Under the pieces are notes generated by a model, which worked only from the letters and a program-made list of their open reading frames with translations, was not told the DNA's origin and made no database searches. From an uncultured archaeon (GTDB lineage: Archaea > Altiarchaeota > Altiarchaeia > JAFGQM01), in NCBI GenBank assembly GCA_964540655.1, contig CAZINR010000002.1, positions 1,736 to 57,708 on the forward strand: 55,973 nucleotides of DNA, read 5' to 3'. Shown here one piece after another: positions 1,250 through 20,616 of the stretch (positions are counted from its first letter, which is position 1; every line of letters begins with the position of its first letter). The position numbers were made by a program, and so were the translations under genes.

Positions 1250-1525
1250 GTTTTCGGGTCTAGAGTTTACTGACGCACGAGGCGGCGTGACTTCAAGTCC
1301 CGCCTCACCAATCCAGGCGCTTCGGGAATGTTCACGAGCTTCGACTTCGTCGAAGCTGTGCGCAGGTTCTCCTTGAGAACCTCGCGTTGGGTTTTCTGTC
1401 CTGGGTCACGAGGTTCATCTGCGATGAACCTGTGCGCAACTGCCTTGCGGGCAGTTCGCGTTTCCTCAGGTTTACAGTTCTCAGTCCTGTAGATGAAACC
1501 ATTTTGAACACCTGTTAGACTTATG
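1250..1525 (+). repeat. junction repeat JY1 (distal, degenerate)
   Basis: Degenerate core tcccgcctcacca at 1298-1310. Two 54-nt hairpin double-modules at 1333-1386 and 1407-1460. Terminal box accattttgaacacc at 1498-1512. It lacks the GAAGAC-rich left arm. Confidence 0.7.
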
Positions 1526-1596
1526 ATGCTAATAAGAAATGGTTTTTATTGATTTTATGTATAATTAAACACATCTGTATAAATCTACACACTAAA

Positions 1597-1740
1597 ATGA
1601 AAAGAACAACCTTTTCCATACCCAAGGAACAGAAGAAAAAACTCGACCAGTTTCCTGAGATAAACTGGCCGATGGTGATAGCGAATGCAATAAATAAAAG
1701 GTTAAAAGAACTTGAAAGGTTTGGGGAATGGCAAGCATAA
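1597..1740 (+). CDS. ribbon-helix-helix-like antitoxin candidate
   Basis: Internal ATG at 1597 gives MKRTTFSIPKEQKKKLDQ..., an RHH-like N-terminal strand. It overlaps the next ORF in a 3-gene module. Confidence 0.45.
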   Translation: MKRTTFSIPKEQKKKLDQFPEINWPMVIANAINKRLKELERFGEWQA

Positions 1741-2015
1741 TCGTACCTTTAGAGGATGCCGTAAGGGAGCGGATGAATCATTTCGGCTGGGTTAACTGGT
1801 CTTATGTGGCTCAGGAAGCATGCGCCAAGAGAAGGATATTCGAGGAATTTATGAAGGCAAGGGAGATATCAAAGGAAGACTCCCAATATTGTGAAAAGAT
1901 AGACTGGCATCCCGTCGATTGGCTTCCCCTAAAAGAAGAGTTCATTAAGAGGCTAGAAGAGGCTGAAAAGGAAGAGGCCATTCCGATAAAAGACCTGTCA
2001 GATATCTTTGAATAA
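1728..2015 (+). CDS. hypothetical protein, middle gene of a TA-like module
   Basis: 95 aa ORF, translationally coupled to both neighbours; no family recognised. Confidence 0.45.
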   Translation: MASIIVPLEDAVRERMNHFGWVNWSYVAQEACAKRRIFEEFMKAREISKEDSQYCEKIDWHPVDWLPLKEEFIKRLEEAEKEEAIPIKDLSDIFE

Positions 2016-2016
2016 A

Positions 2017-2289
2017 ATGTACTACTCCTCTTCTATTAAGCCCTCCTGCAAGAAGACAATAAAGAAGCTGTGCAAGAAGAATTCTGAATTAAAGAAAGCC
2101 CTTTGGAACAAGATGCAAGAGGTGATTGAAGACCCCTTGCGTTACAAGCCCCTTAAATACGACTATTCCAGCAAAAGAAGAGTCCACATACTGAAGAGCT
2201 TTGTCTTGGTTTTCGAGGTATACGAGGAGGCAAATCATATAGAATTCCTAAAGCTTGAGCATCATGATGATGCTTACAAGAGGAAATAA
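2017..2289 (+). CDS. RelE/ParE-superfamily toxin (HHD-type C-terminus)
   Basis: ATG at 2017. The C-terminus RVHILKSFVLVFEVYEEANHIEFLKLEHHDDAY parallels the toxin at 16238-16519 (FVITFRIDGDYVRFVRVAHHDVVY). Confidence 0.55.
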   Translation: MYYSSSIKPSCKKTIKKLCKKNSELKKALWNKMQEVIEDPLRYKPLKYDYSSKRRVHILKSFVLVFEVYEEANHIEFLKLEHHDDAYKRK

Positions 2290-2510
2290 GTTCTCAGTCT
2301 TGTGTCTATCCGGTCGGCGGGCCAAGAAAACCGAAGACTGAAGACCGCAGACCCTTTTCGCCCAAAGGCGAAAAGTAAAATCCCGCCTCCTGGAATCCAT
2401 GCTCTTCGAGCATGTTTTGGGTTGTCTGTTTTCGGTTTTCCAAGGGTTTACAGTTCACGGTTCTCAGTGAAATGGTCATCTTGGGAACACCGATTAATCT
2501 AATGAGCCTA
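2290..2510 (+). repeat. junction repeat JY2
   Basis: Left terminus ccggtcggcgg, then a GAAGAC arm. Hairpin cttttcgcc/ggcgaaaag at 2354-2375. Core tcccgcctcctgga at 2381-2394 (1 mismatch). Loop-TTC hairpin at 2398-2414. Right arm and terminal box ggtcatcttgggaacacc. Confidence 0.8.
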
Positions 2511-3091: not shown

Positions 3092-3967
3092 GTGTCAATT
3101 CCCGAAATGTCTACTGCTTTTAGGAAACTACTGGAGGAAAGGACGCCAGCCGTTCTTGCAGGCGCGCATTCTGGCATCAGCGCAAAGATAGTCGAAGAGT
3201 GCAGCTTTGACGGCATATGGGCCAGCAGTTTTGAGATTTCTTCGCTTTTCGGCGTCCCTGATGCAAACCTGCTTTCGTTTAAAGAAATCTATGATATAGT
3301 CAGCAGTATCAGATCAGCTACTGCCTTGCCAATAATCGTTGACTGTGACAACGGGTACGGTGGTCCGATGAACGTCATCCGCACAGTAAAGGATTATGAG
3401 GCATTGGGCATCGAAGGGGTCTGCATAGAGGATAACCTGTTCCCAAAAAGGTGCAGTTTCTATGAATCGAATAACAGGGGTCTTGAGGATGCAAGGGTAT
3501 TCGCAAAGAAGATAGTTGCTGCAAAAGAGGCCCAGTGCGACCCAAACTTTTTCGTCATCGCTAGGACTGAGGCGCTTATAGCTGGGCTGAGTATGGAAGA
3601 AGCCCTAAGAAGAGCAAGAATGTATGACGACGCAGGAGCCGATGCGATACTTGTGCACTCAAAGAAAACTACAGCTGATGAGGTGAGGGAGTTTGCAGGG
3701 CTCTGGGACTCAAAAACCCCGCTGGTAGTTGTACCCACCAAGTTCCTCTCAGTGTCGTGCAAGGAGCTAGGAGATATGGGATTCAGGATAGTAATCTTTG
3801 CCAACCACGGTCTTCGGGCATCTATAAACGGCATGAGAAAAAGCCTAGCGAAACTAAGGGAAACTGGCATGCAAGAGAGCATATCCGACGGCATCTGCCC
3901 CTTGGAGGATGTTTTTAAGCTCGTAGGCCTTGCGGACTTTTTACAGAAGGAAGAGCGCTACTCATAG
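3092..3967 (+). CDS. isocitrate lyase / PEP mutase superfamily enzyme (PEP-mutase-like, atypical active-site loop)
   Basis: Superfamily hallmarks GVPDAN, IVDCDNGYG and CIEDNLFPKRCS. GTG start at 3092, with an alternative ATG at 3107. Confidence 0.8.
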   Translation: MSIPEMSTAFRKLLEERTPAVLAGAHSGISAKIVEECSFDGIWASSFEISSLFGVPDANLLSFKEIYDIVSSIRSATALPIIVDCDNGYGGPMNVIRTVKDYEALGIEGVCIEDNLFPKRCSFYESNNRGLEDARVFAKKIVAAKEAQCDPNFFVIARTEALIAGLSMEEALRRARMYDDAGADAILVHSKKTTADEVREFAGLWDSKTPLVVVPTKFLSVSCKELGDMGFRIVIFANHGLRASINGMRKSLAKLRETGMQESISDGICPLEDVFKLVGLADFLQKEERYS

Positions 3968-3968
3968 C

Positions 3969-5282
3969 ATGGACGTATTGCTTATAAATCCTGAATTTGC
4001 GGTTGCAGAGAAATACTCTAGTAACCATTTTACAGTGTGGCCGCCACTTGGGCTTCTGTCACTGGCAAGTTATCTGCGCAAGGATGGCCACAGCATACGC
4101 ATATTAGATTTGGCTTCCTATGGCGGGGATAGCTATGCAGCAATGGAACGGGCGCTATCAAAAAATCCAGATGTGGTCGGAATAACCTCCACTACCCCTC
4201 AGTTTGAGAATGCCATTGGCATAGCTAAGCTTTCAAAAAAGCTGTCGGAAGGCTCAACCGTGGTCTTTGGTGGCGTACATGCAACCGTAAAATGGCAAGA
4301 GGTTCTATCTGAAGATAGTGTAGACTATGTTGTCGCGGGGGAGGGTGAAATAGCGTTTAGCAATCTGGTTGACGCCCTAAGCACAGGCAAAAAACCGGAT
4401 TCGCCCGGCATATGCTTCAAGAGCGGCAAATGCCTGAAAAAACTGGGTGGGCAGAGCACAGTCAAGAGCCTAGATGATCTCCCGATACCAGCGTATGACT
4501 TGCTTAATATTCAAATATACCTAGACTATGTTAAACAGACTGAGGGGTTTGAGGGCCTTGCGTACATAGCCAGCAGAGGCTGCCCATTTGAATGCATATT
4601 TTGCGCGGTGAACTGCATGATGGGGAAAAAGCTTAGGCAAAAAAGCCCCGAAAGAACCGTCGAGGAGATAGAATGGCTCATCTCCAAACATGGTGCCGAG
4701 GGGATTTGGTTTAAAGACAGTACCTTCACAGCGGACAGGCGATGGGTGTTAGAGTTCTGCAAAGAGGTAAAAGAAAGAGGTTTGGATTTCGTTTGGAAAT
4801 GCAATACACGGGTGGATTGCGTAGATTCAGAGCTCCTAAGAGCCATGAAAGGCGCCGGATTGGACGGCATTTGGTTTGGCATAGAGTCTGGATCGGATCG
4901 CATCCTAAGGGTATTAAAGAAGGGATATACCACCGATCAAATAATGCGGGCAATGTCGCTTTGTGAGGAGAACGAATTGGCTGTGAGTTCCTGGATGATA
5001 ATTGGTAGCCCGACAGAGGATCTGCAGGACGTGAGGGCCTCAGTCAGGCTCGTCAGGAAGCTAAAGCTTAATAACGTCCATTGGCATACGCTAGTGCCAT
5101 TGCCGGGCAGCGAAATCTATGAGCGCATAGGTGCTATGGCGAAGGACTATTCAGATTTGAGATTTAATAAGGCAGTGATGGCGACAGGTGCGCTTACAAA
5201 GGAACAGGTACAGGTTTTATATGATCAGGTGGTCTGCCAAAATGTAAGCGGCGAACTGGATGAGAGAAAAATAGCATTATGA
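3969..5282 (+). CDS. B12-binding radical SAM enzyme (class B, methyltransferase-like)
   Basis: N-terminal cobalamin-binding-type Rossmann region, then SRGCPFECIFC (CxxxCxxC). The ATG at 3969 abuts the upstream stop. Confidence 0.85.
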   Translation: MDVLLINPEFAVAEKYSSNHFTVWPPLGLLSLASYLRKDGHSIRILDLASYGGDSYAAMERALSKNPDVVGITSTTPQFENAIGIAKLSKKLSEGSTVVFGGVHATVKWQEVLSEDSVDYVVAGEGEIAFSNLVDALSTGKKPDSPGICFKSGKCLKKLGGQSTVKSLDDLPIPAYDLLNIQIYLDYVKQTEGFEGLAYIASRGCPFECIFCAVNCMMGKKLRQKSPERTVEEIEWLISKHGAEGIWFKDSTFTADRRWVLEFCKEVKERGLDFVWKCNTRVDCVDSELLRAMKGAGLDGIWFGIESGSDRILRVLKKGYTTDQIMRAMSLCEENELAVSSWMIIGSPTEDLQDVRASVRLVRKLKLNNVHWHTLVPLPGSEIYERIGAMAKDYSDLRFNKAVMATGALTKEQVQVLYDQVVCQNVSGELDERKIAL

Positions 5283-5285
5283 AAA

Positions 5286-6701
5286 ATGGCACGAATAGCG
5301 CTGATAAATTGTCCGCCCAATGACAACCGGGAGTTCATAAGAGATGCGGTTAAATATGATGAGAAGCTCCCACTGGGCCTCTGTTATATAGCCGCGTATC
5401 TCGAGAGGAATGGTCATAACGCCTTCCTTATAGACGCATACGCGGAGGGGATAGACTCGAATGGCATAGCCGACAGGATCAAAAGGCTAAATCCGGACTT
5501 TGCAGGTGCAACCATGTTGCACCCAAATTCGCAGGAAGTTGGTCTTGTGATGTCAAAGATAAAGGAAGTCACACCTAATGTAACGACCGTTGTCGGGGGC
5601 GTACAGCCCACCCTGGAGCCAGAGTCCGTCCTGAAATCAAACCAGGGGATAGATTTGGCGGTGATTGGTGAAGGTGAAATCACGATGAAGGAGATTATGG
5701 ACAATTTTGATGCCAGAAAAGACTGTAGGAAAGTGCAAGGGGTGGCATACCGAAAAGCGGGAGAAGTGCGGCGATCTGCCGCACGGGAGAGAATATCCAA
5801 TCTAGACATATTGCCGTTCCCCGCTTTGGACAAGATACCGCTGGAGAAATACTGGGGTGAAAAGAAGGTTATGTGTATGGTCACTTCCCGAGGATGCCCG
5901 TTCCATTGCATTTTCTGTGCGAGCAGCGTCTTGTGGGGACATAGCATAACATATAGAAGCATAGAAAATGTTATGGCCGAGATAAGGCATTGGAGAGATG
6001 CATACGGATGCGATTTCTTTTATTTCAATGACATGACATTCACGATTGACCGTGGAAGGATCGATGAATTGTGCAGACGACTCACCTCAGAAGGCCTGGA
6101 CATAGAATGGAAATGCCTTACGCGGCTTGACAACCTCGACGAGGCGTTGATAGCAAGAATGGCCGACGCCGGGTGTAGGGAAATGGCCGTCGGCATAGAA
6201 AGCGGCAACCAGGATATGCAAAGGATGATACGAAAGCATCTTGACTTGAAAAGGGTGAAATGCATGATTAGGACATTGAGTTTGAATAATATAAACGTAC
6301 TGGGGCTTGCGATAATAGGCTTTCCCCGGGAGACGCCAGAGCAGATCCTGGATACTTTGAACTATCTCATATCTCTCAAAGAGGAAGGCATGAAGGAATT
6401 TGATTTGTTCCAAGCAACGCCCTATCCCGGGACAGAGCTTTACAGGATGTGCAATGGTGCTAACCCGCAATCCCACATAATAGAGGACGGCAACTGCTGC
6501 AAGGAACCAGTTATGAAGAAACAGATGAGAAGACACTCCTTCATGCCTTGTTCTTCACCAAACGAGTTCTTCAGCAGTGAAGAGCTGAGGGGGATAATCC
6601 ATCTTACCTACGAACGATTTAAGAGTGGCAAACCGTTATCTATAGACGATTTGAATCTTGGTTGTGAAAAATGGAAGAATCTTCATATGTCAGTGAGCTG
6701 A
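5286..6701 (+). CDS. B12-binding radical SAM enzyme (class B), second paralogue
   Basis: Same architecture, with TSRGCPFHCIFC. The N-terminus MARIALINCPP... parallels the upstream paralogue. Confidence 0.85.
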   Translation: MARIALINCPPNDNREFIRDAVKYDEKLPLGLCYIAAYLERNGHNAFLIDAYAEGIDSNGIADRIKRLNPDFAGATMLHPNSQEVGLVMSKIKEVTPNVTTVVGGVQPTLEPESVLKSNQGIDLAVIGEGEITMKEIMDNFDARKDCRKVQGVAYRKAGEVRRSAARERISNLDILPFPALDKIPLEKYWGEKKVMCMVTSRGCPFHCIFCASSVLWGHSITYRSIENVMAEIRHWRDAYGCDFFYFNDMTFTIDRGRIDELCRRLTSEGLDIEWKCLTRLDNLDEALIARMADAGCREMAVGIESGNQDMQRMIRKHLDLKRVKCMIRTLSLNNINVLGLAIIGFPRETPEQILDTLNYLISLKEEGMKEFDLFQATPYPGTELYRMCNGANPQSHIIEDGNCCKEPVMKKQMRRHSFMPCSSPNEFFSSEELRGIIHLTYERFKSGKPLSIDDLNLGCEKWKNLHMSVS

Positions 6702-8218
6702 ATAGCAAGGTGTTAAGCAACCTGCCAAAGAGAGTGTACGTATACGATTGCACGCTCCGAGATGGGGAGCAAACACCAGGAGTGGTATTTACGGAGGAGG
6801 AAAAAGTGCTGATTGCCGAAGCATTGGAAGGTGCTGGCGTTGACTGTATAGAAGCTGGTTTCCCGACCAACTCCAGTGGCGAGGAGCATGCTGTCGCACG
6901 CGTGGCTGCTTTAGGGCTTAAATCCAAGGTTTCTTGCCTGAGCCGCTGTTTGCCTGGCGATATAGAAGCCTCAATCAGATGCGAGCCGGATCTCGTGCAT
7001 TTGTTCATCTCTACATCGGACATACATCTGCAACATCAGATTAAAAAGAGCCGGGAGGAGGTTTACGGCATGGCCGTAGAGTCTGTGAAAAGCGTAGTCG
7101 ACAGAGGGTTCGAATGCCTGTTCTCGGCAATGGACGCAAGCAGAAGCAATTTGGACTACCTTAAAAAGGTGTATGCGGGAGTAGTTAATGCAGGAGCAAC
7201 TACCATAAACGTTCCTGAGACGGTGAATTCCCTTTGCCCCGAAGCAATGAAATACCTGGTGGGCCAATTAAAGGGGATAGGTGCCAGGATAGACGTGCAT
7301 TGTCATAACGATCTGGGGATGGCCTTGGCAAACACGCTGGCTGCGATCGAGGCTGGGGCCGAGGAGGCACAAGTCACTGTCAATGGCCTTGGTGAGAGAG
7401 CTGGCAATACCAGCCTAGAGCAGCTGGCGGTCATACTCGAGCTGGTGTATGGCGTCAAAACGGGCATAAAGCTGGAGAAGCTCACTGAGTTGTCAAACCT
7501 CATGGCAAAGTACAGCGGCATAGAACCATACCCGCTGCAGCCGATAATAGGAAGGAACGCTTTTGCGCACGAAAGCGGGATTCATGTGCAGGGCATACTT
7601 GAAAGGGCCAAGACTTTCGAGGCCTTTGCCCCAGAGCTCGTTGGTCAGAGGAGAAGACTAGTGCTAGGTAAACATGCCGGAAAGCATGGGGTAGACGCAA
7701 CTCTCAAGTCGATGGGATACTCTGGGTACTCTTCAAGTGAATTGGGAGCCATCAGCAGGCGGGTGAAGGAACTAGCAGAAAAGCAAAAAAAGGTATTCGA
7801 TGAGGACATCAGGGCTATTGTAGACTCGGCACTCGGTAAGGGTCAAGATGAAGGGCCAATCAAACTGGAGGAAATTGAGATAATGACGGGCAACAAGGTG
7901 AAGCCAAGGGCCAAAGTCAGCCTTCGGGTCAATGGCAAGCTGATTGAAGCATGCGGGAATGGAGTAGGGCCGGTAGATGCCGCCATAAGCACAATAGAAT
8001 CGGCGATAAAGGGGTTTGCAAACATAAGGCTCGTGAAGTATGAACTTGCCGCAATAACCGGCGGTACGGATTCCCTAAGCGACTGCAAAGTCACGATAAA
8101 AGACACTATGGGGGAGGACTATGTGGGGCACGCTGTGCATGAGGACATTGTGCAGGCTTCTATCAAGGCCATAATAAACGCCATGAACTCTGCAATGAGG
8201 CGTAGGGGGGGACGGTGA
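6671..8218 (+). CDS. 2-isopropylmalate / homocitrate / citramalate synthase family enzyme (DRE-TIM plus LeuA-type C-terminal domain)
   Basis: YDCTLRDGEQTPG, HCHNDLGMALANTLAA and HESGIH motifs; 515 aa including the regulatory domain. Confidence 0.85.
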   Translation: MEESSYVSELNSKVLSNLPKRVYVYDCTLRDGEQTPGVVFTEEEKVLIAEALEGAGVDCIEAGFPTNSSGEEHAVARVAALGLKSKVSCLSRCLPGDIEASIRCEPDLVHLFISTSDIHLQHQIKKSREEVYGMAVESVKSVVDRGFECLFSAMDASRSNLDYLKKVYAGVVNAGATTINVPETVNSLCPEAMKYLVGQLKGIGARIDVHCHNDLGMALANTLAAIEAGAEEAQVTVNGLGERAGNTSLEQLAVILELVYGVKTGIKLEKLTELSNLMAKYSGIEPYPLQPIIGRNAFAHESGIHVQGILERAKTFEAFAPELVGQRRRLVLGKHAGKHGVDATLKSMGYSGYSSSELGAISRRVKELAEKQKKVFDEDIRAIVDSALGKGQDEGPIKLEEIEIMTGNKVKPRAKVSLRVNGKLIEACGNGVGPVDAAISTIESAIKGFANIRLVKYELAAITGGTDSLSDCKVTIKDTMGEDYVGHAVHEDIVQASIKAIINAMNSAMRRRGGR

Positions 8219-8841
8219 AGGAGACAAAAGAAAGCATTGAGCACCTGGAGCGTGTAGCTGATTGTTTGAGAAAAAATGGGTTCGATGCAAAAGTTTTTAT
8301 CGATCCTAATGGCATGGCCGATTATTTTCTGGATAAGATAGGCGCACATGATACTGTGGGTCTGGGCGGTTCGGTAACTATTGCAGAAACTGGCATAATC
8401 GAGCGGCTGGAGCTCAGGGGCAACATTATCTACAACCCATATGTCCAGCGCACAAGAAAGGAAGAGATGGACACAAGACGGAAGTGTCTACTGTCAGACT
8501 GGTTCATAACTGGGTCAAATGCAGTGACCGAGAATGGCCAGTTAGTCAATGTAGATGGCTTAGGCAGTAGGGTTTCAGCGATAGCATTCGGGCCGAAAAA
8601 TGTTCTGATAGTCGTTGGGAAGAACAAGATAGTGCCTGATGTTGAAGGGGGCTTCCAAAGGATAAAGGATCTGTCAGCACCGAAAAATGCGAAAAGGCGC
8701 GGCAATAAAACACCATGCGTAGACGGTAGATGCCCAGGATATGTCCCCGGGGAATGCATATGCAACATCCAGTCAGTTATTAATGGAGATGCTGCAGGCA
8801 GGATACATATCGCGCTAATATATCAAGAAATGGGCTATTAA
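8215..8841 (+). CDS. LUD-domain (LutC/YkgG-like) protein
   Basis: GTG start overlapping the upstream stop. TGSNAVTENGQLVNVDG and a C-terminal Cys cluster resemble the lactate-utilisation LUD family as I remember it. Confidence 0.5.
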   Translation: MKETKESIEHLERVADCLRKNGFDAKVFIDPNGMADYFLDKIGAHDTVGLGGSVTIAETGIIERLELRGNIIYNPYVQRTRKEEMDTRRKCLLSDWFITGSNAVTENGQLVNVDGLGSRVSAIAFGPKNVLIVVGKNKIVPDVEGGFQRIKDLSAPKNAKRRGNKTPCVDGRCPGYVPGECICNIQSVINGDAAGRIHIALIYQEMGY

Positions 8842-8855
8842 CGGAGCGGTTAAAG

Positions 8856-9959: not shown

Positions 9960-9960
9960 A

Positions 9961-12295: not shown

Positions 12296-12536
12296 CTACA
12301 AAGCCGCCAAAGCTAAGGAAGCAAGTGAAGGTCCAACCAATGTAACTGGTTTGAACCGAGGATAATGTCCCGCCTCCCGGAATCTAGGCGCTTCGCGCCT
12401 GTTTTCAGTTTTCTGTCCTGGGTCTTCCTTGGGTTTCCAGCACGAAGGTCCCGACGGGACCTTGTGCGCAGGTTTGTCTTCGGCAAACCTCGCGTTCTCG
12501 GTTTTCGAACTGGTCATTTTGAACACTGTTTTAGCA
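12296..12536 (+). repeat. junction repeat JY3
   Basis: Core at 12368-12381. Hairpin aggcgc-ttc-gcgcct at 12386-12400. Double-module at 12441-12494. Terminal box ggtcattttgaacac. The left flank lacks the GAAGAC arm. Confidence 0.8.
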
Positions 12537-12863: not shown

Positions 12864-13117
12864 GCCTTCAACCTCGGATTGCTCGTTATCCTCCTTACAA
12901 GTTCAGGGTTCCAGACCCAGATTATCTGTCCGTCCTTTATTATGATCTTTCCAGAGTCCTGCAGGTAATCAAGGATGACGTTGAACGTCTGGTACATAAC
13001 CTTCTTCGGCAGGGATTTCCAAAGCTGCTTCTTTGTAGGATAGTCCTCATGTTCTTGTATGGCTTTTTCCACCATCAACACCGTATCCAACCTCGGATAA
13101 TGTAAAACCGCTTGCAT
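12860..13117 (-). CDS. antitoxin candidate (winged-helix-like)
   Basis: 85 aa, translationally coupled upstream of the toxin-like gene. Confidence 0.45.
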   Translation of the reverse strand: MQAVLHYPRLDTVLMVEKAIQEHEDYPTKKQLWKSLPKKVMYQTFNVILDYLQDSGKIIIKDGQIIWVWNPELVRRITSNPRLKA

Positions 13118-13157: not shown

Positions 13158-13490
13158 GTTTTCTGTTTTCTAACCGGTCGGCGGTCAGGAAGACTCAAGA
13201 CCGATAACTGAAGACTGAAAATAATCCCGCCTCCCGGAAGGTATGCCCTTCGGGCATGTTTTGGGTTTTCTGTCCTGCGTCTTCCTCAGGTTTCCAGTTC
13301 ACTGTTTTCTGTGAACTGGTCATCTGGGAAACCCCGGGTAGGTTAATGAAAGTACAAAGAAAAATTACGCGCTCCGCCCGAATGTCACAAAGTGACATTG
13401 GGCGCAACTTCGCTTCGCGAAGTTCGCGCGCTAAGGACATAAAGGTAGGTGTTACACTACGACATGGACCATATGTAGTGTAAAACGCTC
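13158..13490 (+). repeat. junction repeat JY4
   Basis: taaccggtcggcgg terminus and GAAGAC arm. Core at 13225-13238. Hairpin atgccc-ttc-gggcat at 13243-13257. Hairpin at 13294-13319. Box gtcatctgggaaacc, then A-box acaaagaaaaa. Module at 13378-13429. TTACACTAC hairpin at 13452-13482. Confidence 0.85.
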
Positions 13491-13556: not shown

Positions 13557-14489
13557 ATGTCTTATTTAAGAGAAAAGAGGTCTGGAAAGAAAACTGGAAT
13601 TTACCTCACACAGAGTATACGTCTCAACGGTAAAATCAGGAATATTAGTGTTCTTTTGGGGTACAAACCAATAAGCGACATAGATAAATTAAAAAAACAA
13701 AAAGAGCCGATACTGAAAAAGAAGATAGAGCGGCTTCTATCTTCCGAAAGAGAGGATTACATGCTTTTGTCCGAGCAGGAAAGGCAAACCCTAAAGAATC
13801 TGGCTGAAGCTTATCAAAAAGCCCTCAAAAAATTCGACCCCGTCACCAAACAGAAATATCTTGACTGGTTCCTGACGCAGTTCACTTACGATACCAATGC
13901 GATAGAAGGCTCAAGCGTCCCTCTGGAAGAAGTCGGCCTGATATTATTCGACAAGGTAGTGCCTGCAGACAGGAATTTGAGGGAGGTCTACGAGGTCCAG
14001 AATCATAAGAAGGCATACGATTTCATAAACAAATATGTGGGCGATCTCAACTTTAAATTCATTATGGATGTCCATAGGCGCTTGATGTCAGAGATTATCT
14101 CAGATGCGGGAAAGACGCGTAAGGTTCGCGTGTTTGTAAGGGGATCTGACTTAAAGCCGCCCAAACCGGAAGACGTCTCAAAACATCTGGAAAATCTGGT
14201 CAAATGGTACAAGTCAAACAAATCTTTGCACCCTGTCTTGTTGGCAGCCCATATCCACTCGGAATTCGAGAGGATCCATCCGTTCAGGGACGGAAACGGC
14301 AGGACCGGCAGGCTCCTTCTTAACTTCATATTAATAAAGAACGACTATCCGCCGATAAACATACTGAATGAGAAGAGGGGCGCGTATTATTCGGCCCTTA
14401 GGGCTTGGGACAAAGGCGAAAAAAGACCTTTTGTCGAGCTTGTAATCTCATACATAAAAGACAGTGTCGGTTTTGTCACTAATCCCTAA
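13557..14489 (+). CDS. Fic/DOC family protein (AMPylase-type) with an internal inhibitory helix motif
   Basis: HPFRDGNGRTGRLL matches the Fic motif HxFx(D/E)GNGRxxR. TNAIEG matches the (S/T)xxxE(G/N) auto-inhibition motif. Confidence 0.9.
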   Translation: MSYLREKRSGKKTGIYLTQSIRLNGKIRNISVLLGYKPISDIDKLKKQKEPILKKKIERLLSSEREDYMLLSEQERQTLKNLAEAYQKALKKFDPVTKQKYLDWFLTQFTYDTNAIEGSSVPLEEVGLILFDKVVPADRNLREVYEVQNHKKAYDFINKYVGDLNFKFIMDVHRRLMSEIISDAGKTRKVRVFVRGSDLKPPKPEDVSKHLENLVKWYKSNKSLHPVLLAAHIHSEFERIHPFRDGNGRTGRLLLNFILIKNDYPPINILNEKRGAYYSALRAWDKGEKRPFVELVISYIKDSVGFVTNP

Positions 14490-14855
14490 CCTGTCGGCGG
14501 TCAGGAGGACTCAAGACCGATAACTGAAGACTGAAAATAATCCCGCCTCCCGGAATCCAGGCGCTGCGCCCGAAGGTCCCACCGGACCTTGGGCGCAACT
14601 TCTCTTCGAGAAGTTCGCGCGCCTGTTCACGAGCTTCGACTTCGTCGAAGCTGTGCGCAGGTTCTCCTTGAGAACCTCGCGTTCGGTCTTCTGTTCTGGG
14701 TTTTCCTCAGGTTTGCAGTCCACGGTTTTCTGTGGACTGGTCATCTTGGAAACACCCGGACTTTAACGAAAATACAAAGAAAAACTTATGCGCCTCCGGC
14801 GCAAAGGACATGAATCAGTGTTACACTACAACACGGGCAAGTGTAGTGTAAAACG
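14490..14855 (+). repeat. junction repeat JY5
   Basis: Core at 14541-14554. Double-modules at 14571-14621 and 14628-14681, the latter identical to 1333-1386. Hairpin at 14716-14739. Box gtcatcttggaaacaccc. A-box. TTACACTAC hairpin at 14821-14851. Confidence 0.85.
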
Positions 14856-14956
14856 CTTTTTAATTCTTGAATCCATAATATTAACACCACCTCACGGTGC
14901 CGAACCGTGAGACCCTCCTGGGCAACTTCGGTTGCGTCCAGGGGGACTTTACTCTT

Positions 14957-15643
14957 ATGACCAACAAGATACGCGTCAATTTCTACATAGATGGCTTCAA
15001 CGTTTATCACAGATTAAAGGACTACACCGAAAAGGCTGGTATTTGCTACAACTGGCTCGATTACAAAAGCCTGCTCAGTTCTCTACTCAAAGAGGGCGAG
15101 GAACTGGGCGAGATCTATTTCTTCACGGCCATATCTCAAAGGCACGGCGCTGACTCGGTTGTCAGACACAACAAATACGTCACCGCCCTAGAAGCCACTG
15201 GCGTTAATGTAGTCAAGGGCTATTTTACCAAGAAATACCGCAAGTGTAAGGTCAGGAGTTGCACTTATAAGGGCTTTAAGGAGTATCCTGACGAAGAAGA
15301 AAAAGAGACTGATGTCAAGATTGCTGTCCAAATGCTGAAAGATGCGGTAAATGATAAATTTGACAGATGTTTCCTGATGTCGGGCGATAATGATTTCGGC
15401 CCCGTTCTATTAGCGATTAAGGAATTGCGTCCAGACAAACAGGTCGGTTTGATAACGCCTCCTTTTGAACCCGGTATAGTGGACCTGATTAAGATGAGTG
15501 GGTTGAAAAAGGCATGTAGCGAGTGCAAAGGCCCGAGAATAAAAATGACGTTTGATAGACTTAAGGGGCATTCTTTGCCAAAGGAGGTAACAATTCCTGG
15601 AAAGCCGCCTGTCAAGATGCCAAAGGGTTATCGTACTTTTTAA
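14957..15643 (+). CDS. NYN-domain (LabA-like) putative RNase
   Basis: ATG at 14957. The N-terminus RVNFYIDGFNVYH and the later SGDNDF are the acidic motifs of NYN/LabA-like PIN-fold proteins. Confidence 0.65.
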   Translation: MTNKIRVNFYIDGFNVYHRLKDYTEKAGICYNWLDYKSLLSSLLKEGEELGEIYFFTAISQRHGADSVVRHNKYVTALEATGVNVVKGYFTKKYRKCKVRSCTYKGFKEYPDEEEKETDVKIAVQMLKDAVNDKFDRCFLMSGDNDFGPVLLAIKELRPDKQVGLITPPFEPGIVDLIKMSGLKKACSECKGPRIKMTFDRLKGHSLPKEVTIPGKPPVKMPKGYRTF

Positions 15644-15950
15644 CCGGTCGGCGGTCAGGAGGACCCAAGACTGAAGACCGCAGACCCTTTTCGCCCAAAG
15701 GCGAAAAGTAAAATCCCGCCTCCCGGAATCCAGGCGCGAAGCGCCTGTTCTCAGTTTTCTGTTTTGGGTCACTAGGTTCATCTGCGATGAACCTGTGCGC
15801 AACTGCCTTGCGGGCAGTTCGCGTTTCCCCAGGTTCCCAGTTCACGAGATTCGCCTTTAGCGAATCTGTGCACAGGTTCTCGGAGAGAACCTCGTGCTCT
15901 GCCGGAACCATCTCGGAAACACCTAGAGCGTAAGGAAAGCACAAAGAAAA
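15641..15950 (+). repeat. junction repeat JY6
   Basis: The taaccggtcggcgg terminus contains the NYN stop codon. Hairpin cttttcgcc/ggcgaaaag. Core at 15714-15727. Hairpin aggcgc-gaa-gcgcct at 15732-15746. Double-modules at 15770-15823 and 15843-15896. A-box. Confidence 0.85.
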
Positions 15951-15983: not shown

Positions 15984-16241
15984 ATGGATACACTGAAAGT
16001 CAACATATCCTTTCCGGTAGAGATGTACAAAAACGCCAAACTATTGGTGGACAATGGGTTTTATGGCTCTTTTTCCGAGATGGTTCGTAGTGGGATCAGG
16101 AATGAGATAGATATGCAGAGCCAGATAAATCCCGAATTCGTTGAGTCTATAAAAGTCGCTGAAGCTAGCGGATATAAAGACTACAAAACTGGGGAGGACA
16201 TGATTAGAGATCTCCACAAGGCCGCCAAGGAGAAGCGATGA
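15984..16241 (+). CDS. ribbon-helix-helix (CopG-like) antitoxin
   Basis: MDTLKVNISFPVEMYKNAKLLVDNGFYGSFSEMVRSGIRNE is a paralogue of the ORF at 25523-25789. ATGA overlap with the toxin. Confidence 0.6.
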   Translation: MDTLKVNISFPVEMYKNAKLLVDNGFYGSFSEMVRSGIRNEIDMQSQINPEFVESIKVAEASGYKDYKTGEDMIRDLHKAAKEKR

Positions 16242-16519
16242 TAGGCAACAAGGAATACAAGCCAAAACGCTCTAAATACTTCGAGAAGGATTATGTCTCG
16301 CTTGTGAGAAAGAACAGAGGTTTGCAAGAAAGACTTGACAAGAAGATACTGCAGATACTCGGGATGCCTGAGGTTTACAAGAACCTGAAGAAGCCCTTAC
16401 AGAGGTACAAAGCCGCGCATGTCGACCCATTTGTCATCACCTTCAGGATAGACGGGGATTATGTGAGGTTTGTCAGGGTTGCACACCATGATGTGGTTTA
16501 TGGGCTTCCACACGATTAG
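16238..16519 (+). CDS. RelE/ParE-superfamily toxin (HHD-type C-terminus)
   Basis: 93 aa; FVITFRIDGDYVRFVRVAHHDVVYG; coupled to the RHH gene. Confidence 0.6.
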   Translation: MIGNKEYKPKRSKYFEKDYVSLVRKNRGLQERLDKKILQILGMPEVYKNLKKPLQRYKAAHVDPFVITFRIDGDYVRFVRVAHHDVVYGLPHD

Positions 16520-16705
16520 TTCTCAGTTCTCTGTTTTTGCATTCCAACCGGTCGGCGGTCAGGAAGACTCAAGACTGAAGACTGAAAAAGGTCCCGCCTC
16601 CCGGAATGTAGGACCTTCGGCCCTGTCTTCGGTCTTTGTGTGGTTCACTGTCTACGGTCTTGTCTATAGGCCTGACCATTTTGAACACCGGACAGACTAA
16701 CGAAA
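16520..16705 (+). repeat. junction repeat JY7 (short form, no double-modules)
   Basis: ccaaccggtcggcgg plus GAAGAC arm. Core at 16592-16605. Hairpin aggacc-ttc-ggccct at 16610-16624. Terminal box gaccattttgaacacc. Confidence 0.8.
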
Positions 16706-16718
16706 CTATTGACATGAC

Positions 16719-16988
16719 TCATCTGATTCTGCGAAGATGTTTATATGCATTTCCTCTGTAGTCGACCATACGGATGACCAATAGGTCCTCCTTCTTATAA
16801 TAATCGACGAAGAGTCTGTAATCGCCGACGCGAATCTTAAGGAAGTCATAGCCTTTGACCGACTCAAGATATCTCTCCACGCTTTTGCCTATCTTCTGGT
16901 TGACTGTAGTGTAAATACGGTTGGCTATGTGTTTGTCGAGCTTCCTAAGATAATCTCTGGCTTTGGGGTCCCAGATTACGCGACTCAT
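16719..16988 (-). CDS. RelE/ParE toxin
   Basis: 89 aa; KIRVGDYRLFVDYYKKEDLLVIRMVDYRGNAYK is the classical RelE/ParE core. Confidence 0.7.
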   Translation of the reverse strand: MSRVIWDPKARDYLRKLDKHIANRIYTTVNQKIGKSVERYLESVKGYDFLKIRVGDYRLFVDYYKKEDLLVIRMVDYRGNAYKHLRRIR

Positions 16989-17179
16989 CCTCCGAACTCG
17001 GCCTTCATCTCTTCGTTTGAGATGAATTCGTCATTGGGCCTGTTCCTGGATTCCTCCACTCCTTTGACTATGTGGTCTGACAATTCACCCTCTTCGTCCA
17101 GGACTAATCTGATATGCGCAACCTCCTTCTTGAGGCCCATCAACTCTTTATGTATCTGATTCAGAGTCACGTTTTGCAT
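16985..17179 (-). CDS. antitoxin candidate
   Basis: 64 aa with a 4-nt overlap upstream of RelE. Confidence 0.5.
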   Translation of the reverse strand: MQNVTLNQIHKELMGLKKEVAHIRLVLDEEGELSDHIVKGVEESRNRPNDEFISNEEMKAEFGG

Positions 17180-17219: not shown

Positions 17220-17500
17220 GGCTTTCCGTCTTGTCCGGTCGGCGGTCAAGTCGGTCTTCAGTCTTGGGTTTTCAGTCCTCGCTTGGATATCAAAAACCGA
17301 AGACTGTAAACTGTAGACCACTCCCCGAAGGGGAGTAAAATCCCGCCTCCCGGAGGGCCGCTTCGCCCGAAGGTCCCACCGGACCTTGGGCGCAACTTCT
17401 CTTCGAGAAGTTAGCGCGGCTGTCTACGGTCTTCTGTCTAGAGTCTTGGAAAGGTCTTCTGTCTACGGTCTGCGTAGACAGAGCCATTTTGAATCCTGCA
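17220..17500 (+). repeat. junction repeat JY8
   Basis: ccggtcggcgg. An inverted arm copy gtcggtcttcagtcttgggttttcagtcc. Hairpin ctcccc-gaa-ggggag. Core at 17341-17354. Module at 17368-17418, equal to 14571-14621 with 1 difference. Hairpin gtctacg/cgtagac. Box gccattttgaatcc. Confidence 0.8.
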
Positions 17501-17614
17501 CACTTACGATTCTGATATTATAAACCCATGACTAACAAAGGTGGCTGCAGATTGACAATATGGCATTTTTTAACAAGAAAGCCTTATATTAGCGCAAAAT
17601 TTGTAGGTGATAAA

Positions 17615-18313
17615 ATGACCGCGGCCACGAAGGAAATCGGAAAAATCAACAGGATAGGCATAGGCATACCTGAAGTGAACAAGCTGATTGAAGGCGGCAT
17701 ACCGGAATGCTCAATAGTCTTGCTCGCTGGTGAGCCTGGAACTGGAAAGACGATATTTGGCCTCCACTACATATCGGCCGGGGTAAAAGAAGGCGAAAAA
17801 TGTGCTTATGTGGCAATAGAACAAAATCCTGAGGAACTAAAGATACAAGCAAAGATACTCGGAAAGGATGTGGGCCCTGCGGAGTTTATCTCAGCCAAAG
17901 ACATTAAATATGATCTCGGTCTCGGCAAAAAGCCTGAAGACGTTATTGAGAAAATCAAACTCGTTCTTGAGAAGCTACAAAAGCTTAAAGTAAAGAGGGT
18001 AGTTATCGATTCTGTCAGCTCCCTTCAACTGGAGGATGGAATCAAGGCTAGGCTTGTTGTCAAAATGCTCGTGGACGGGTTGAAGAAACTGGGCGCAACC
18101 GCAGTGATTACAGGAGAATCCTTGAACGGAATTTACCCCGATGAGGTCACCCCTTTCCTCGTTGACGGGATGATTGTGCTTAAGAGGACTCACATTGGGA
18201 ACGAAACTCGCCGGGTTTTGGAGGTGATTAAGATGAGGCTTACGGACTGTAACGACTCGCCCCAACAATTTGAGATAACTAAAAAGGGAATTAAGATCAT
18301 TGCGGGCGAATAA
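17615..18313 (+). CDS. KaiC/RecA-superfamily ATPase (single-domain, archaeal KaiC-like)
   Basis: ATG at 17615. Walker A GEPGTGKT, Walker B-like VVIDSVS. The GIPE...VLLAGEPG context is typical of KaiC-like proteins. Confidence 0.7.
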   Translation: MTAATKEIGKINRIGIGIPEVNKLIEGGIPECSIVLLAGEPGTGKTIFGLHYISAGVKEGEKCAYVAIEQNPEELKIQAKILGKDVGPAEFISAKDIKYDLGLGKKPEDVIEKIKLVLEKLQKLKVKRVVIDSVSSLQLEDGIKARLVVKMLVDGLKKLGATAVITGESLNGIYPDEVTPFLVDGMIVLKRTHIGNETRRVLEVIKMRLTDCNDSPQQFEITKKGIKIIAGE

Positions 18314-18342
18314 GCTATACTCGCCCCTCCTTCATTCTTGAA

Positions 18343-19491
18343 ATGGCGGGGCCCGGCAAAGTATTTGAGGACATAAAAGCCAAGATTTACGACAAGTTCA
18401 TTCAATACTTTGTGATAACAAGGGGCGAAGTAATAGACCAACCCGGTTTTATACTCTGTAGATTTACCAGCGGTTCTTATGATATTTCCTTAAGGGAGTT
18501 CGTATTTCCCGAAAGCCTGTTCTGTGAACTTGAAAGCGCCATTGTAAAAAAATACGGGGACAAAGGCAAACAGGCCCTCTATTCTGCCGGAAAGAAATTT
18601 GGCTATAGGTATGCTAAAATTTCCGGCCTTGCCACAATTGCCAAATCTGGAGAGAAAAGATTTAAGAAAGAATTGTATGATGCAGTTAGGTATATGGAGA
18701 CAATTTATGCAGAGGGTATTCGGCATATTGTCGATTTGAAAAAAAGCCTTTTTGAGGCCAGTCTAAACCAATACGTAGTCTGTAGACTGAATGGTTTGGG
18801 GTATCTGCTTACCGAAGGCTCTGTGGCGGGCACTCTTGCGTATATGCTGGATAACAAAGATGTCGAAGGCACACAGATTCAATGCCAGGGGAGAGGGGAC
18901 AAGCTCTGTAAACTCATTTGTGCGCCCAAGCAGTACCTGAAAAACAAAAAAATAGCATTCCTTGAGGAAAATGACTACACAAAACTCGAGCTGAGCATTG
19001 ATTATCCAAGAATGAACGCAGTGCGCCAATGCAAATTTGCTACACAGTCATTCAAATCATTGGTGGATTCGGGATTCTATAAATATGAGCCCGGAGTCGC
19101 TAAATTTGGAAATGAAAGGTATCTTTTTTGCGAATCCAGCATATGGTATCTCATTGAAATTGAGCTGGGTAAATTAGGCGCGAATGGCCTAATATTCGAC
19201 GTTGCATTTGAAACTGGGAAAAAAGTGGGCAAGGAGCATAAGAGATACGGCGCAAAGGGGTTCCTTACGGACTATCTTTCCTCTTTGGGGTATGGAGATG
19301 TCCAGCAACTCAGCGAAAGGGAAGTGTCCATAGACTATTTCCCATGGACCCGCTACGTTGATGAAATACAGTTTGATTTACTTCGGGGGCTTGTTTCAGG
19401 ATTGCTAAGTGGGCTTACTGGAAAAGAGATTAAGCTAAGAAAAGTGGAGTATAGGGAAGATGACGGTTTCCTGAGCATAGCCATTAAATAA
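18343..19491 (+). CDS. hypothetical protein, possibly a tandem V4R-like (4-vinyl-reductase-type) ligand-binding protein
   Basis: 382 aa. CQGRGDKLCKLIC and the surrounding pattern resemble a V4R domain from memory only, so the functional call is weak. Confidence 0.4.
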   Translation: MAGPGKVFEDIKAKIYDKFIQYFVITRGEVIDQPGFILCRFTSGSYDISLREFVFPESLFCELESAIVKKYGDKGKQALYSAGKKFGYRYAKISGLATIAKSGEKRFKKELYDAVRYMETIYAEGIRHIVDLKKSLFEASLNQYVVCRLNGLGYLLTEGSVAGTLAYMLDNKDVEGTQIQCQGRGDKLCKLICAPKQYLKNKKIAFLEENDYTKLELSIDYPRMNAVRQCKFATQSFKSLVDSGFYKYEPGVAKFGNERYLFCESSIWYLIEIELGKLGANGLIFDVAFETGKKVGKEHKRYGAKGFLTDYLSSLGYGDVQQLSEREVSIDYFPWTRYVDEIQFDLLRGLVSGLLSGLTGKEIKLRKVEYREDDGFLSIAIK

Positions 19492-20329
19492 GAAAAACTG
19501 CCGCAAAAAGAAGAACGAAAATATCGACAAGAAGCATAACCTCTATATGTATTCTCCTATATTCCGCCCGGGTGCGTGCCTTCATGAAATTATCAAATAA
19601 GATTATATATGCCGGCAATACTAAGAACCCCAACATAAATTTGGAGGGAAGGGCTCCTGTAAGTATCATAATGAAAAGGGTGAGAAAAAAGACATAGTTA
19701 AGAATCACATAGGTCGTTGGTTTATAATACCTCTTGAGCTTGGGGAGTGTGGAACCGTTTTTATCGCCCTCAACATCTTCAAAATCCTTAATCTGCGAGG
19801 CGATGAAGATATAGGCGCCCATTATCGCTATTACATTCCACTGAAGCGCGCTTATCTGATGGGCGGACACTGCTAAGCCTATGATGGTGCCCAGGGCGCC
19901 CCAGGTAAGCCCCATAACAAGATAGTTTACAAGAAGAACCTCCTTCAGCCTTAGTTTTTCAAATGAATAAAGAACCCCGATTAGCAGGCTTACAAGAACT
20001 GCAGATTGTAAGAGTTGCGTTCCCAAAAAACTAAGAACAATAGAGGCCCCCGCCAAGAAGATGAAAAAAGGGAAAAGCTCTTTTTTTGAAAGATTTTTAT
20101 GGACAAATAAATTTTTCCTGTTTATGGTGTCAACTTCCCAGTCGGCTATCACATTTAATACAGTTATTGAGGAGACTAAAAACCACCATACTGCAAATGC
20201 AAAAGCAATGTTTATAATGGTCAGCGAACCGCCCATAGCCAAACCCAAAATAACAAAGACCGAAAGCAGGAAATTGTGGGGATAAGTCGCAATTAGCAAC
20301 GCCTTTAATTTGCTTATGGGCGAATCCAT
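19484..20329 (-). CDS. UbiA-family aromatic/isoprenoid prenyltransferase (integral membrane)
   Basis: 281 aa, multi-TM. NVIADWEVD and KDFEDVEGD are the two Asp-rich UbiA motifs. Confidence 0.7.
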   Translation of the reverse strand: MDSPISKLKALLIATYPHNFLLSVFVILGLAMGGSLTIINIAFAFAVWWFLVSSITVLNVIADWEVDTINRKNLFVHKNLSKKELFPFFIFLAGASIVLSFLGTQLLQSAVLVSLLIGVLYSFEKLRLKEVLLVNYLVMGLTWGALGTIIGLAVSAHQISALQWNVIAIMGAYIFIASQIKDFEDVEGDKNGSTLPKLKRYYKPTTYVILNYVFFLTLFIMILTGALPSKFMLGFLVLPAYIILFDNFMKARTRAEYRRIHIEVMLLVDIFVLLFAAVFLI

Positions 20330-20419
20330 TGTAGGGGCACTATTTAGTGGGTTGGGAACTAAAAACAGAATTTGATTAAGGTTGCTGGCAAAATATGGTG
20401 CCTTTGATTGGGGCTAGCT

Positions 20420-20505
20420 TTCTCTTGGCTTAGACTGAAAACCTCTCCGGGCAGACCCTGGACTGAAGACCGCAGACCCTTTTCGCCCAAAGGCGAAAAG
20501 TAAAA
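20420..20505 (+). repeat. junction half-repeat JY9 (left arm only) abutting the tRNA-Tyr 3' end
   Basis: agactgaaaacc...ggactgaagaccgcagac, then the hairpin, then gtaaaa. The same left arm occurs in JY2 and JY6. The core here is the functional tRNA 3' end. Confidence 0.8.
20479..20500 (-). terminator. T-tract plus 9-bp hairpin immediately downstream of tRNA-Tyr
   Basis: The minus strand reads ...GGGA TTTTAC CTTTTCGCC TTTG GGCGAAAAG. The same element is copied in JY2 (2354-2375) and JY6. Confidence 0.4.
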
Positions 20506-20616
20506 TCCCGCCTCCCGGATTTGAACCGGGGATCTTCCGGTAACCGTCTTTTCTCAGGCTCTCGCCCGAAAGCAAACTACAGCCAGACGCGTTAAACCAG
20601 ACTACGCTAAGGCGGG
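20506..20616 (-). tRNA. tRNA-Tyr(GTA) with a 35-nt intron at 37/38
   Basis: Manual fold of the minus strand: CCCGCCT-TA-GCGT-AGTCTGGTTTA-ACGC-G-TCTGG-CTGTAG[intron]A-CCGGA-AGATC-CCCGG-TTCAAAT-CCGGG-AGGCGGG-A. C1-G72 is the archaeal/eukaryal Tyr identity pair. No CCA is encoded. Confidence 0.85.

Follow-up and report, generated by a model that had tools for sequence, protein, structure and literature searches.

The window analyzed here, a stretch of 55,973 nt from an uncultured archaeon (assembly GCA_964540655.1, contig CAZINR010000002.1, positions 1,736 to 57,708), carries an intron-bearing tRNA-Tyr(GUA) gene with a tandem array of small gene cassettes stacked behind it, each junction of the array holding a copy of the 3' end of that tRNA. 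The gene was recognized by Rfam (RF00005, 50.3 bits) and by aragorn when introns were allowed, which returned Tyr(gta), and its minus-strand read ends ...CCCCGGTTCAAATCCGGGAGGCGGGA. On the plus strand, this end is the 14-mer TCCCGCCTCCCGGA, the complement of one T-loop base, the 3' strand of the T-stem, the 3' strand of the acceptor and the discriminator A. This 14-mer, called the core in the following, and its copies, all on the plus strand, were located at these positions:

1298-1309 (+), distal-most, decayed core TCCCGCCTCACC; on its left the end of a Zn-ribbon gene (1065-1247), on its right a right arm; a B-O-P'-type junction
2381-2394 (+), core with one mismatch (TCCCGCCTCCTGGA)
12368-12381 (+), exact core
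13225-13238 (+), exact core
14541-14554 (+), exact core
15714-15727 (+), exact core
16592-16605 (+), exact core
17341-17354 (+), exact core
20506-20616 (-), tRNA-Tyr gene with intron; its last 14 nt (20506-20519 on the plus strand) form the exact proximal core, an attB-like site

When up to two mismatches were allowed, eight copies of the Tyr core were counted against 0.64 expected by chance, and none of 100 shuffled sequences reached eight. In all of the copies of this first array, the identity to the tRNA ends at the same base, give or take one. Between the cores lie eight cassettes of low G+C content, C1 to C8, which are fully filled by arms (the conserved sequences flanking each core) and cargo, with no room for remnants of an integrase:

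C1, 1310-2380: right arm ~1310-1512; three small genes at 1549-2289, the third of them ParE-like; hairpin-bearing left arm 2310-2380, type A
C2, 2395-12367: right arm ~2395-2495; 10-gene phosphonate-type biosynthetic cluster with the phosphoenolpyruvate (PEP) mutase at 3092-3967
C3, 12382-13224: right arm 12382-12526; YoeB/ParE-like toxin 12537-12863 (-); 85-aa partner 12860-13117 (-); left arm 13174-13224, type B
C4, 13239-14540: right arm ~13239-13365; Fic 13557-14489; left arm 14490-14540
C5, 14555-15713: right arm 14555-~14785, in which GC-rich hairpin modules are nested; NYN protein 14897-15643; left arm 15644-15713, type A
C6, 15728-16591: right arm 15728-~15952; ribbon-helix-helix (RHH) protein 15984-16241; ParE 16238-16519; left arm 16548-16591
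C7, 16606-17340: right arm 16606-~16690; ParE 16719-16988 (-); 64-aa partner 16985-17179 (-); composite left arm 17235-17340
C8, the tRNA-proximal cassette, 17355-20505: right arm 17355-~17500; KaiC-like protein 17528-18313; V4R-like protein 18343-19491; UbiA 19484-20329 (-); left arm 20437-20505, type A

According to Pfam, C1 encodes a ParE-like toxin together with two small genes, and the cargo of C2 comprises PEP mutase, two B12-radical SAM enzymes, an HMGL/LeuA-like protein, LUD, a thiamine pyrophosphate (TPP) enzyme, HMGL and UPF0047. The V4R match in C8 was weak. Matches to models of defense genes were obtained for the Fic protein of C4 (SoFic, PDC-S04) and for the NYN protein of C5 (HEC-09). 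The G+C content of array 1 is 0.464, compared with 0.579 in the DNA between this array and a second one described below and 0.562 in the right flank; the short left flank reaches only 0.502. The cluster in C2 extends over about 9.8 kb (3092-12193), and it was additionally observed that its HMGL/LeuA protein resembles homocitrate synthase, that its TPP enzyme is decarboxylase-like and that it also encodes a protein of 224 aa in which a CX5R(S) phosphatase-like motif is present.

Most of what the initial annotation had read from the letters of this block was borne out: the identity of the 14-mer with the complement of the tRNA-Tyr 3' end (by Rfam, by aragorn with introns and by the minus-strand read), the positions of its copies including the decayed one at 1298 (all recovered, in one orientation and far above chance), the end of identity at one base (within one position), the contents of the eight cassettes (by Pfam), the mixture of gene orientations with junctions of a single polarity (by the arm markers given below) and the lower G+C of the block, with the reservation on the left flank given above. 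Its 14-nt junction was correct as regards the core, but the repeated unit is far longer. When all of the junctions were aligned on the core, a unit of about 150-350 nt emerged, composed of a left arm of ~60-110 nt, the core and a right arm of 100-240 nt. The right arm runs through 4 nt, a 7-bp hairpin, GTTTT, three to four heptamers of the GTTTTC/GTCTTC type and a box resembling GGTTTACAGTTC, and closes, for example, with GGTCATTTTGAACAC. The left arm starts with CCGGTCGGCGG and continues with GAAGAC-type heptamers, inverted relative to the right-arm ones; in many cases another hairpin and a stretch rich in A/T follow, which reaches up to the next core. The markers of the arms are CCGGTCGGCGG, the GAAGAC/GTCTTC heptamer clusters and GGTTTACAGTTC...CCATTTTGAACAC.

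The distribution of these markers was highly regular over the ten cassettes of the window, which include two of the second array. Heptamer clusters are nearly confined to cassette ends, with a single stray cluster in ~30 kb of core flank. The left-arm marker CCGGTCGGCGG was found only at tRNA-proximal ends (6/6), and the right-arm markers only at distal ends (nine of the ten cassettes) and on one strand throughout; with random orientation, agreement among nine cassettes would have a probability of ~2^-8. Shared modules, 91-96% identical between non-adjacent junctions, make up the arms in mosaic fashion, and hairpin units of ~30 nt, rich in GC, are nested inside them. The hairpin of the right arm next to the core was 94.6% paired in eight junctions from four lineages, with compensatory changes in five of its seven pairs, and none of 500 shuffles scored as high, which marks the hairpin as being under structural selection. 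Designs resembling terminators, a hairpin followed by a T-run, flank the core on both strands, and the arms probably double as terminators or insulators. The left arm of C7 holds the hairpin ACTCCCC-GAAG-GGGGAGT, and that of C8 gives a hairpin and T-run directly 3' of tRNA-Tyr. Whole junctions fold as imperfect palindromes centered on the core, with a modest stability (z between -0.4 and -4.8) that comes mostly from local hairpins. An attC-like single-strand fold was also considered and dropped: the arms do pair, but with no more than this stability. When the two ends of each cassette were aligned in inverted orientation, C3 (z 9.7) and C8 (z 11.4) gave strong signals and three others weaker ones (z 3.6-4.4), and five cassettes gave no signal.

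The search for further junction copies, one of the checks that the initial annotation had proposed, was successful: a second array was found at 24586-26197, behind another tRNA gene, and a duplicated 3' end at a third (52307 and 52401). The features of these two loci are the following:

24586-26184, array 2: cores at 24586, 25364 and 26093 (the last with one mismatch); G+C 0.465; arms of the array-1 family
24599-25363, K1: HicA/HicB
25377-26092, K2: RHH and ParE
26106-26184, cargo-less unit of 79 nt adjoining the second tRNA
26185-26303 (-), second tRNA, intron-containing, Rfam 52.1 bits; its 3' end TGCGGCCGCCGGG is the core of array 2
52322-52400, cargo-less unit of the third tRNA, 79 nt, hairpin-containing, bracketed by two exact cores
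52398-52534 (-), third tRNA, candidate Arg(tcg) with intron, detected by aragorn only

Including the one in the tRNA, four copies of the second core TGCGGCCGCCGGG were counted, against 0.13 expected by chance. The anticodon of the second tRNA was read from the loop as Gly(UCC); aragorn places the intron elsewhere and calls Ser. The last 15 nt of the third tRNA (CGGACCCGCCGGGAT) recur exactly, at 52307 (52307-52321) and at 52401, with 0.00 copies expected by chance. The introns of the three tRNA genes are long (~38, 48 and 59 nt); ARAGORN with default settings detected none of the three, and Rfam at its gathering threshold misses the third. The two arrays share a G+C of ~0.465, as opposed to ~0.57 in the host, and, within the window, the core-adjacent parts of the arms in the Tyr array are unlike those in the Gly array. 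The register of the repeat, from the discriminator to the edge of the T-loop, is common to three or four different tRNAs, with a length of 13-15 bp. Cargo-less units of ~79-90 nt were observed at three tRNAs: at 26106-26184, at 52322-52400 and, in a related locus (L064), at a tRNA-Ser, where at least four units stand in tandem (L064 9586-9968). Each of these units contains a hairpin with a 9-bp stem and a GC-rich tail; the architecture is common to them, with no clear sequence homology. Directly 5' of the second tRNA, between it and its likely promoter, a cluster of heptamers like those of the right arm was also noticed (26309-26328).

Additionally, look-ups with proteins of the window led to related loci in other uncultured archaea (L064, L078 and L080/L081; these, with L063 and L079, are the contig loci related to the window). 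A comparison of tRNA-Tyr loci in relatives had also been suggested, and it showed that at least three further lineages of uncultured archaea, those of L064, L078 and L080/L081, have the design of core plus arms at tRNA-Tyr, with an identical Tyr core and with cargo and arm types shuffled. In L064 (GCA_964592405.1), cores at 2998 and 3801 accompany a toxin-antitoxin (TA) cassette, a DpnI-like restriction enzyme and then an AAA_14 ATPase; the enzyme is methyl-directed and the ATPase matches the defense model PDC-S01. A ParE cassette and a second junction were found in L078, whose contig starts inside a Gly-type junction, and one clean junction in L080/L081. Between the window and L064, cores and arms are 85-97% identical, compared with 64-74% for chromosomal genes. 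The type-A hairpin arm, which terminates C1, C5 and C8 in the window, terminates the DpnI cassette in L064, and the hairpin arm of C7 terminates the tRNA-proximal TA cassette there. A homologous TA pair is third from the distal end in the window and adjoins the tRNA in L064. Gly-type and Tyr-type junctions of L078 have arms whose heptamer parts are 93% identical to each other. With Fic, NYN, the AAA_14 ATPase and the methyl-directed restriction enzyme, the cargo is, by its family matches, defense-flavored. The identity of TA genes between lineages was rejected as proof of cassette transfer, because the pair is widespread without arms.

At the borders of the cassettes in these relatives, direct repeats of GTTACACTACA were observed in place of the GTTTACAGTTC of the window. 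These repeats, or the repeated reading-frame ends described next, lie at L064 1-108, 1881-1996, 1646-1740, 2875-2935 and 3062-3095, at L063 ~150-200 and at L079 8386 and 9614. An open reading frame (ORF) end of ~40 codons (...YYRQIKGNWYAYESRREGGKVRSAYLGRFF...) is repeated ahead of two L064 cassettes, the contig breaking within one of the copies; this repeated ORF may encode a small DNA-binding accessory protein.

The junctions follow a fixed order. The distal-most ones (1298 and 24586) have chromosomal DNA as left flank, in the case of 24586 the promoter region of an SLT gene; internal junctions consist of left arm, core and right arm; and the proximal ones of left arm, core and tRNA body. This topology is what repeated attP x attB integration predicts. 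Internal junctions are attP-like, and may also serve as integration sites. Moreover, the uniform polarity, the asymmetry of the arms and the differences between Tyr and Gly arms next to the core favor a directional site-specific recombination. The reading that we hold to be slightly better than even is that the arrays are made of non-autonomous integrative cassettes, inserted in tandem at tRNA 3' ends by conservative site-specific recombination through a recombinase acting in trans, which by analogy with known systems would probably be a tyrosine recombinase. A circularized cassette would carry an attP-like site, formed by a left arm, a core of 13-15 bp identical to the end of the target tRNA and a right arm. 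A recombinase encoded elsewhere, most likely one of those tyrosine integrases that work with a short tRNA core together with arm sites and accessory proteins, would join this site to the tRNA 3' end or to an existing junction; the tRNA would be regenerated, the older cassettes displaced outward and one core left per junction. The asymmetric arms would set the orientation, and the hairpins and T-runs next to the core might serve as terminators or insulators while also providing the tRNA with its 3' trailer. Addiction and a benefit in defense may be what keeps the cargo (TA pairs, Fic, NYN, restriction enzyme, ATPases and the phosphonate cluster) in place. The initial annotation had proposed a cassette-accretion platform mobilized in trans. 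Its anatomy stands, with attP-like halves, a regenerated tRNA, one polarity and shuffled arms, as do its statistical support and its occurrence both at three tRNAs and across several lineages; the chemistry of the recombination, the trans-acting enzyme and present-day mobility are what we infer from it.

The search for the enzyme was carried out with Pfam on the island genes and on part of the flank ORFs. No recombinase family, Phage_integrase included, was matched among them, and the other flank ORFs were judged by eye only; to this extent, the earlier statement that no ORF of the window looks like a recombinase is confirmed. No integrase, Cas1, PolB or transposase was found in the window or in the related array loci annotated with Pfam, with the only exception of a fragment at L063 1-63 (-). 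This is an N-terminus of 21 residues (MNYVGLDVHKEYC...), located at the broken end of the contig and ~230 nt from the 3' end of tRNA-Tyr, which, judging from its motif, is putatively of an IS110-like transposase. A very basic protein of 315 aa (20706-21653, +) is the divergent neighbor of tRNA-Tyr and is conserved there in three lineages (58% and 54% identity). Its intI-like position made it a recombinase candidate, which was rejected: it has no Pfam match, and its AlphaFold model, of low confidence (pLDDT 58), is helical with a winged-helix-like hairpin.

Searches beyond these loci added little. The protein clusters of the window are all singletons at 90% identity, so there is no sister strain to compare. 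A scan of a genome collection with the oxidoreductase gene beside the second tRNA gave a best relative of 54% identity, with arms in none of 59 loci, and no close relative was reached through that one gene among the GTDB representative genomes. A metagenome scan with the core and the start of the right arm returned only the known Joint Genome Institute (JGI) contig and eight chance matches in unrelated high-GC coding DNA; scans of viral collections with arm or junction patterns gave zero or chance matches; a whole junction, compared by blastn with records of plasmids and phages, gave nothing; and a homology search with the Zn-ribbon gene of the distal border, made to find an empty site, gave no homologue.

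Several observations weigh against the proposal of trans-mobilized cassettes. The window leaves out around 15.6 kb of its 71,581-bp source contig, along with the remaining genome, and a conventional integrase could adjoin it; the class of the enzyme and the dependence on it in trans are inferred by us, no recombinase having turned up in the sequences examined. In C2, no recognizable left arm precedes the core at 12368. Five contigs of the L064 lineage have a single arrangement, and the searches above turned up neither an empty site nor a presence/absence polymorphism nor a circular junction. The 85-aa partner of the YoeB-like toxin, the best-conserved cassette gene, has 91% identity also where cores and arms are absent, and the heptamer clusters of L078 also follow genes with no obvious core. 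Finally, the cargo-less 79-nt units are not predicted by simple integration and excision.

Part of these observations would be expected if the cassettes were the stumps of integrase-bearing elements (a virus, a plasmid or an island) that accreted at the tRNA and then decayed, shedding the integrase and the bulk of their other genes; they would then not form a dedicated cassette system. Tandem re-use of tRNA att sites by elements with an integrase is well known in archaea and bacteria (PMC6563490), and the concept of cis-mobilizable elements (CIMEs) covers such leftovers (PMC5704250). The lost arm of C2, the decaying cores at 1298 and 2381 and an integrase that may lie beyond the window agree with this origin. 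Random loss, however, should often strip arms and leave pseudogenes. The ten cassettes of the window and at least five in relatives hold no fragment of an integrase, and nearly all of them keep both arms around a tight cargo of 0.7-1.3 kb. The 91-96% identity of modules at non-adjacent junctions, and the same arm types around different cargo across lineages, also speak against decay, which we consider unlikely. The arrays would have to be read in yet another way if the repeat of 13-15 bp were a target-site duplication, produced when a casposase (Cas1) or another "ruler" integrase, whose cut is placed a constant distance away from the T-loop's conserved box, moves non-autonomous elements with imperfect terminal inverted repeats, the genes being stacked as in CRISPR. 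Family-2 casposons do duplicate 14 bp, target tRNA genes and insert in tandem (PMC4779613); the inverted end-to-end alignment was significant in five of the ten cassettes (z 3.6-11.4); the register is constant at three or four tRNAs; and the near-identical heptamer part in Gly-type and Tyr-type junctions of L078 fits as well. Such an origin is nevertheless decidedly improbable, given that the polarity is single here, whereas casposons occur at tRNA-Leu in both orientations (PMC4779613), that half of the cassettes show little or no inverted-repeat similarity, that the arms are asymmetric with side-specific markers and that Cas1 and PolB were not seen at any locus examined. In the window, the Tyr and Gly arms differ next to the core, as expected if the core travels with the cassette.

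Two other explanations dispense with such an integrase. The arms might be immobile regulatory or insulator modules, bidirectional terminators with protein-binding heptamers, spread by duplication and gene conversion within a variable region that adjoins tRNA genes by chance; the hairpins and T-runs on both strands around the core, the L078 heptamer clusters behind some genes lacking cores and the mosaic of arm modules, which suggests gene conversion, would all suit them. It is very hard to see, on the other hand, how they would account for the fact that, at three tRNAs, each unit exactly copies the 3' end of its neighboring tRNA and that of no other, for the chromosomal flank at the distal junction, for the low G+C of the arrays or for unrelated cargo between identical arms across lineages, and we give this explanation little credence. 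Mobilization by an IS110-family recombinase of the bridge-RNA type, to which the L063 fragment near the tRNA-Tyr 3' end would point if its assignment by motif is right, appears the most improbable. Neither in the window nor in the other arrays was a gene of this kind seen, no more than 21 residues of the fragment are visible, and insertion by IS110-type elements duplicates just a 2-nt core, not 14 nt.

Among the systems already described, the att sites are closest in design to those of the SNJ2-type tyrosine integrases of archaea, in which a 14-bp core identical to the tRNA 3' end is combined with conserved P/P' arms and small accessory proteins (PMC5861418). As in these integrases, known from haloarchaeal pleolipoviruses and their relatives, the core here is 14 bp of the distal 3' part of a tRNA, the arms are 100-250 bp, integration would be directional and regenerate the tRNA, and different subgroups target different tRNAs in the same register (PMC5861418). 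The statement of the initial annotation that the junction sites are very different needs qualifying in view of this design. SNJ2 elements, in contrast, carry the integrase together with orf2/orf3 beside the att site; no cassette here carries them, no SNJ2-family integrase with Orf2/Orf3 is present in the window, and the likeness noted here is one of design. The cassettes also differ in being cargo units of ~0.7-10 kb stacked two to eight deep. Family-2 casposons share with them the 14-bp direct repeats, the tRNA targets, the tandem arrangement, archaeal hosts and, as far as the cassette ends align with each other, inverted terminal sequences, but they encode Cas1 and PolB and insert in either orientation (PMC4779613), whereas neither gene was seen here, the polarity is uniform and the arms are asymmetric.

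A likeness to integrase-less arrays of tycheposons had been proposed as well. The tycheposons of Prochlorococcus are indeed targeted to tRNAs, leave partial tRNAs in islands, push older elements inward as newer ones arrive and carry defense or niche cargo, but they are by definition elements that encode an integrase (10.1101/2020.12.28.424599). They have tyrosine or serine integrases of their own and often replication modules, neither of which is found in the cassettes, and the host here is an archaeon. CIMEs and chromosomal integrons are closer. CIMEs, described from islands of streptococcal integrative and conjugative elements (ICEs) as well as integrative and mobilizable elements (IMEs), have att sites on both flanks, lack genes for integrase and transfer, accrete in tandem at a regenerated target end and are mobilized through the integrase of another element (PMC5704250). 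Every cassette of the window likewise lies between two cores with arms, with no integration genes. CIMEs are described as arising by decay from ICEs or IMEs and usually number one or two at a site, with a functional helper adjacent; the arrays here consist of many uniform mini-cassettes with elaborate conserved arms, are archaeal and have no helper in view. With chromosomal integrons (e.g., the Vibrio superintegron) and archaeal integrons (PMC9668308), the arrays share TA-rich cassettes of ~0.5-1 kb, structured repeats in the form of imperfect palindromes, one polarity and cassettes devoid of recombinase; all ten cassettes of the window conform to this recombinase-less, single-polarity arrangement. 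Unlike in integrons, gene orientation is mixed, a tRNA 3' end takes the place of attI and no intI adjoins the array, neither Phage_integrase nor any other recombinase family being matched among the island and scanned flank ORFs. The junction alignments revealed no R/L boxes or conserved R-box consensus of attC sites; their invariant part is the non-palindromic tRNA core at the center of the palindrome.

In the literature, no account was found of uniform arrays of integrase-less cassettes with long arms at archaeal tRNAs; the coverage was incomplete, and this is absence of evidence only. We rate as new the non-autonomous, integron-like cassette form of tRNA-targeted site-specific integration, integrative elements targeted to tRNAs being already known. 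A bolder and more tentative possibility, which we regard as rather less probable than not, is that of a dedicated, lineage-wide cassette-capture system of archaea, integron-like, with the 3' ends of several tRNAs as docks and a single arm-recognizing machinery encoded apart, possibly by the host. Cassettes of ~1 kb with ~300 nt of structured arms would then move between tRNAs and genomes, the machinery would come from a family so far without a link to cassettes of this kind, and the cargo-less 79-nt units might be empty docking or shuttle units.

If the cassettes are mobilized in trans, they would constitute an archaeal gene-capture platform of integron-like character that needs neither IntI nor attC, and would help to explain how TA and defense modules, and even a phosphonate cluster of 10 kb, are shuffled among uncultured archaea. 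Islands with "partial tRNAs" could in that case be built from purpose-made non-autonomous cassettes and not from the wrecks of larger elements. If an ordinary integrase lies nearby, the finding shrinks to an unusually tidy case of tandem accretion. The conserved, structured arms provide a sequence signature for finding arrays, and the missing recombinase, in archaeal metagenome-assembled genomes, as well as defined substrates for biochemical work.

Other features of the junctions and their surroundings were also recorded. Palindromic, GC-rich modules of ~28-38 nt (e.g., GCGCAACTTCTC-TTCG-AGAAGTTCGCGC) are chained or nested in the right arms and are sometimes inserted in the loop of the hairpin next to the core; they are 87-96% identical across distant junctions and resemble miniature hairpin insertions. 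They lie at the following positions:

1320-1470
12440-12500
13394-13431
14562-14684
15789-15916
17359-17419
24680-24790
52170-52290

ORFs of 65-92 aa that recur across junctions were discarded as genes, their translations being of low complexity and apparently non-coding. A primer-binding site of a retroelement was likewise rejected as an explanation for the tRNA complement, since no TGG (the complement of CCA) precedes the core. The archaeal traits of the window comprise the intron-containing tRNAs, an eL15 protein nearest to euryarchaeal ribosomal proteins, a SepSecS/SepCysS-like enzyme and PurP-type DUF1246/DUF1297 proteins. Between the two arrays, a lytic transglycosylase with an SLT domain and a twin-arginine-like signal is encoded at 23263-24522 (-). 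Its homologue in L064 (8243-9487, +) is inverted with respect to its neighbors and has, on its upstream side, a MazE/PemK cassette together with a tRNA-Leu.

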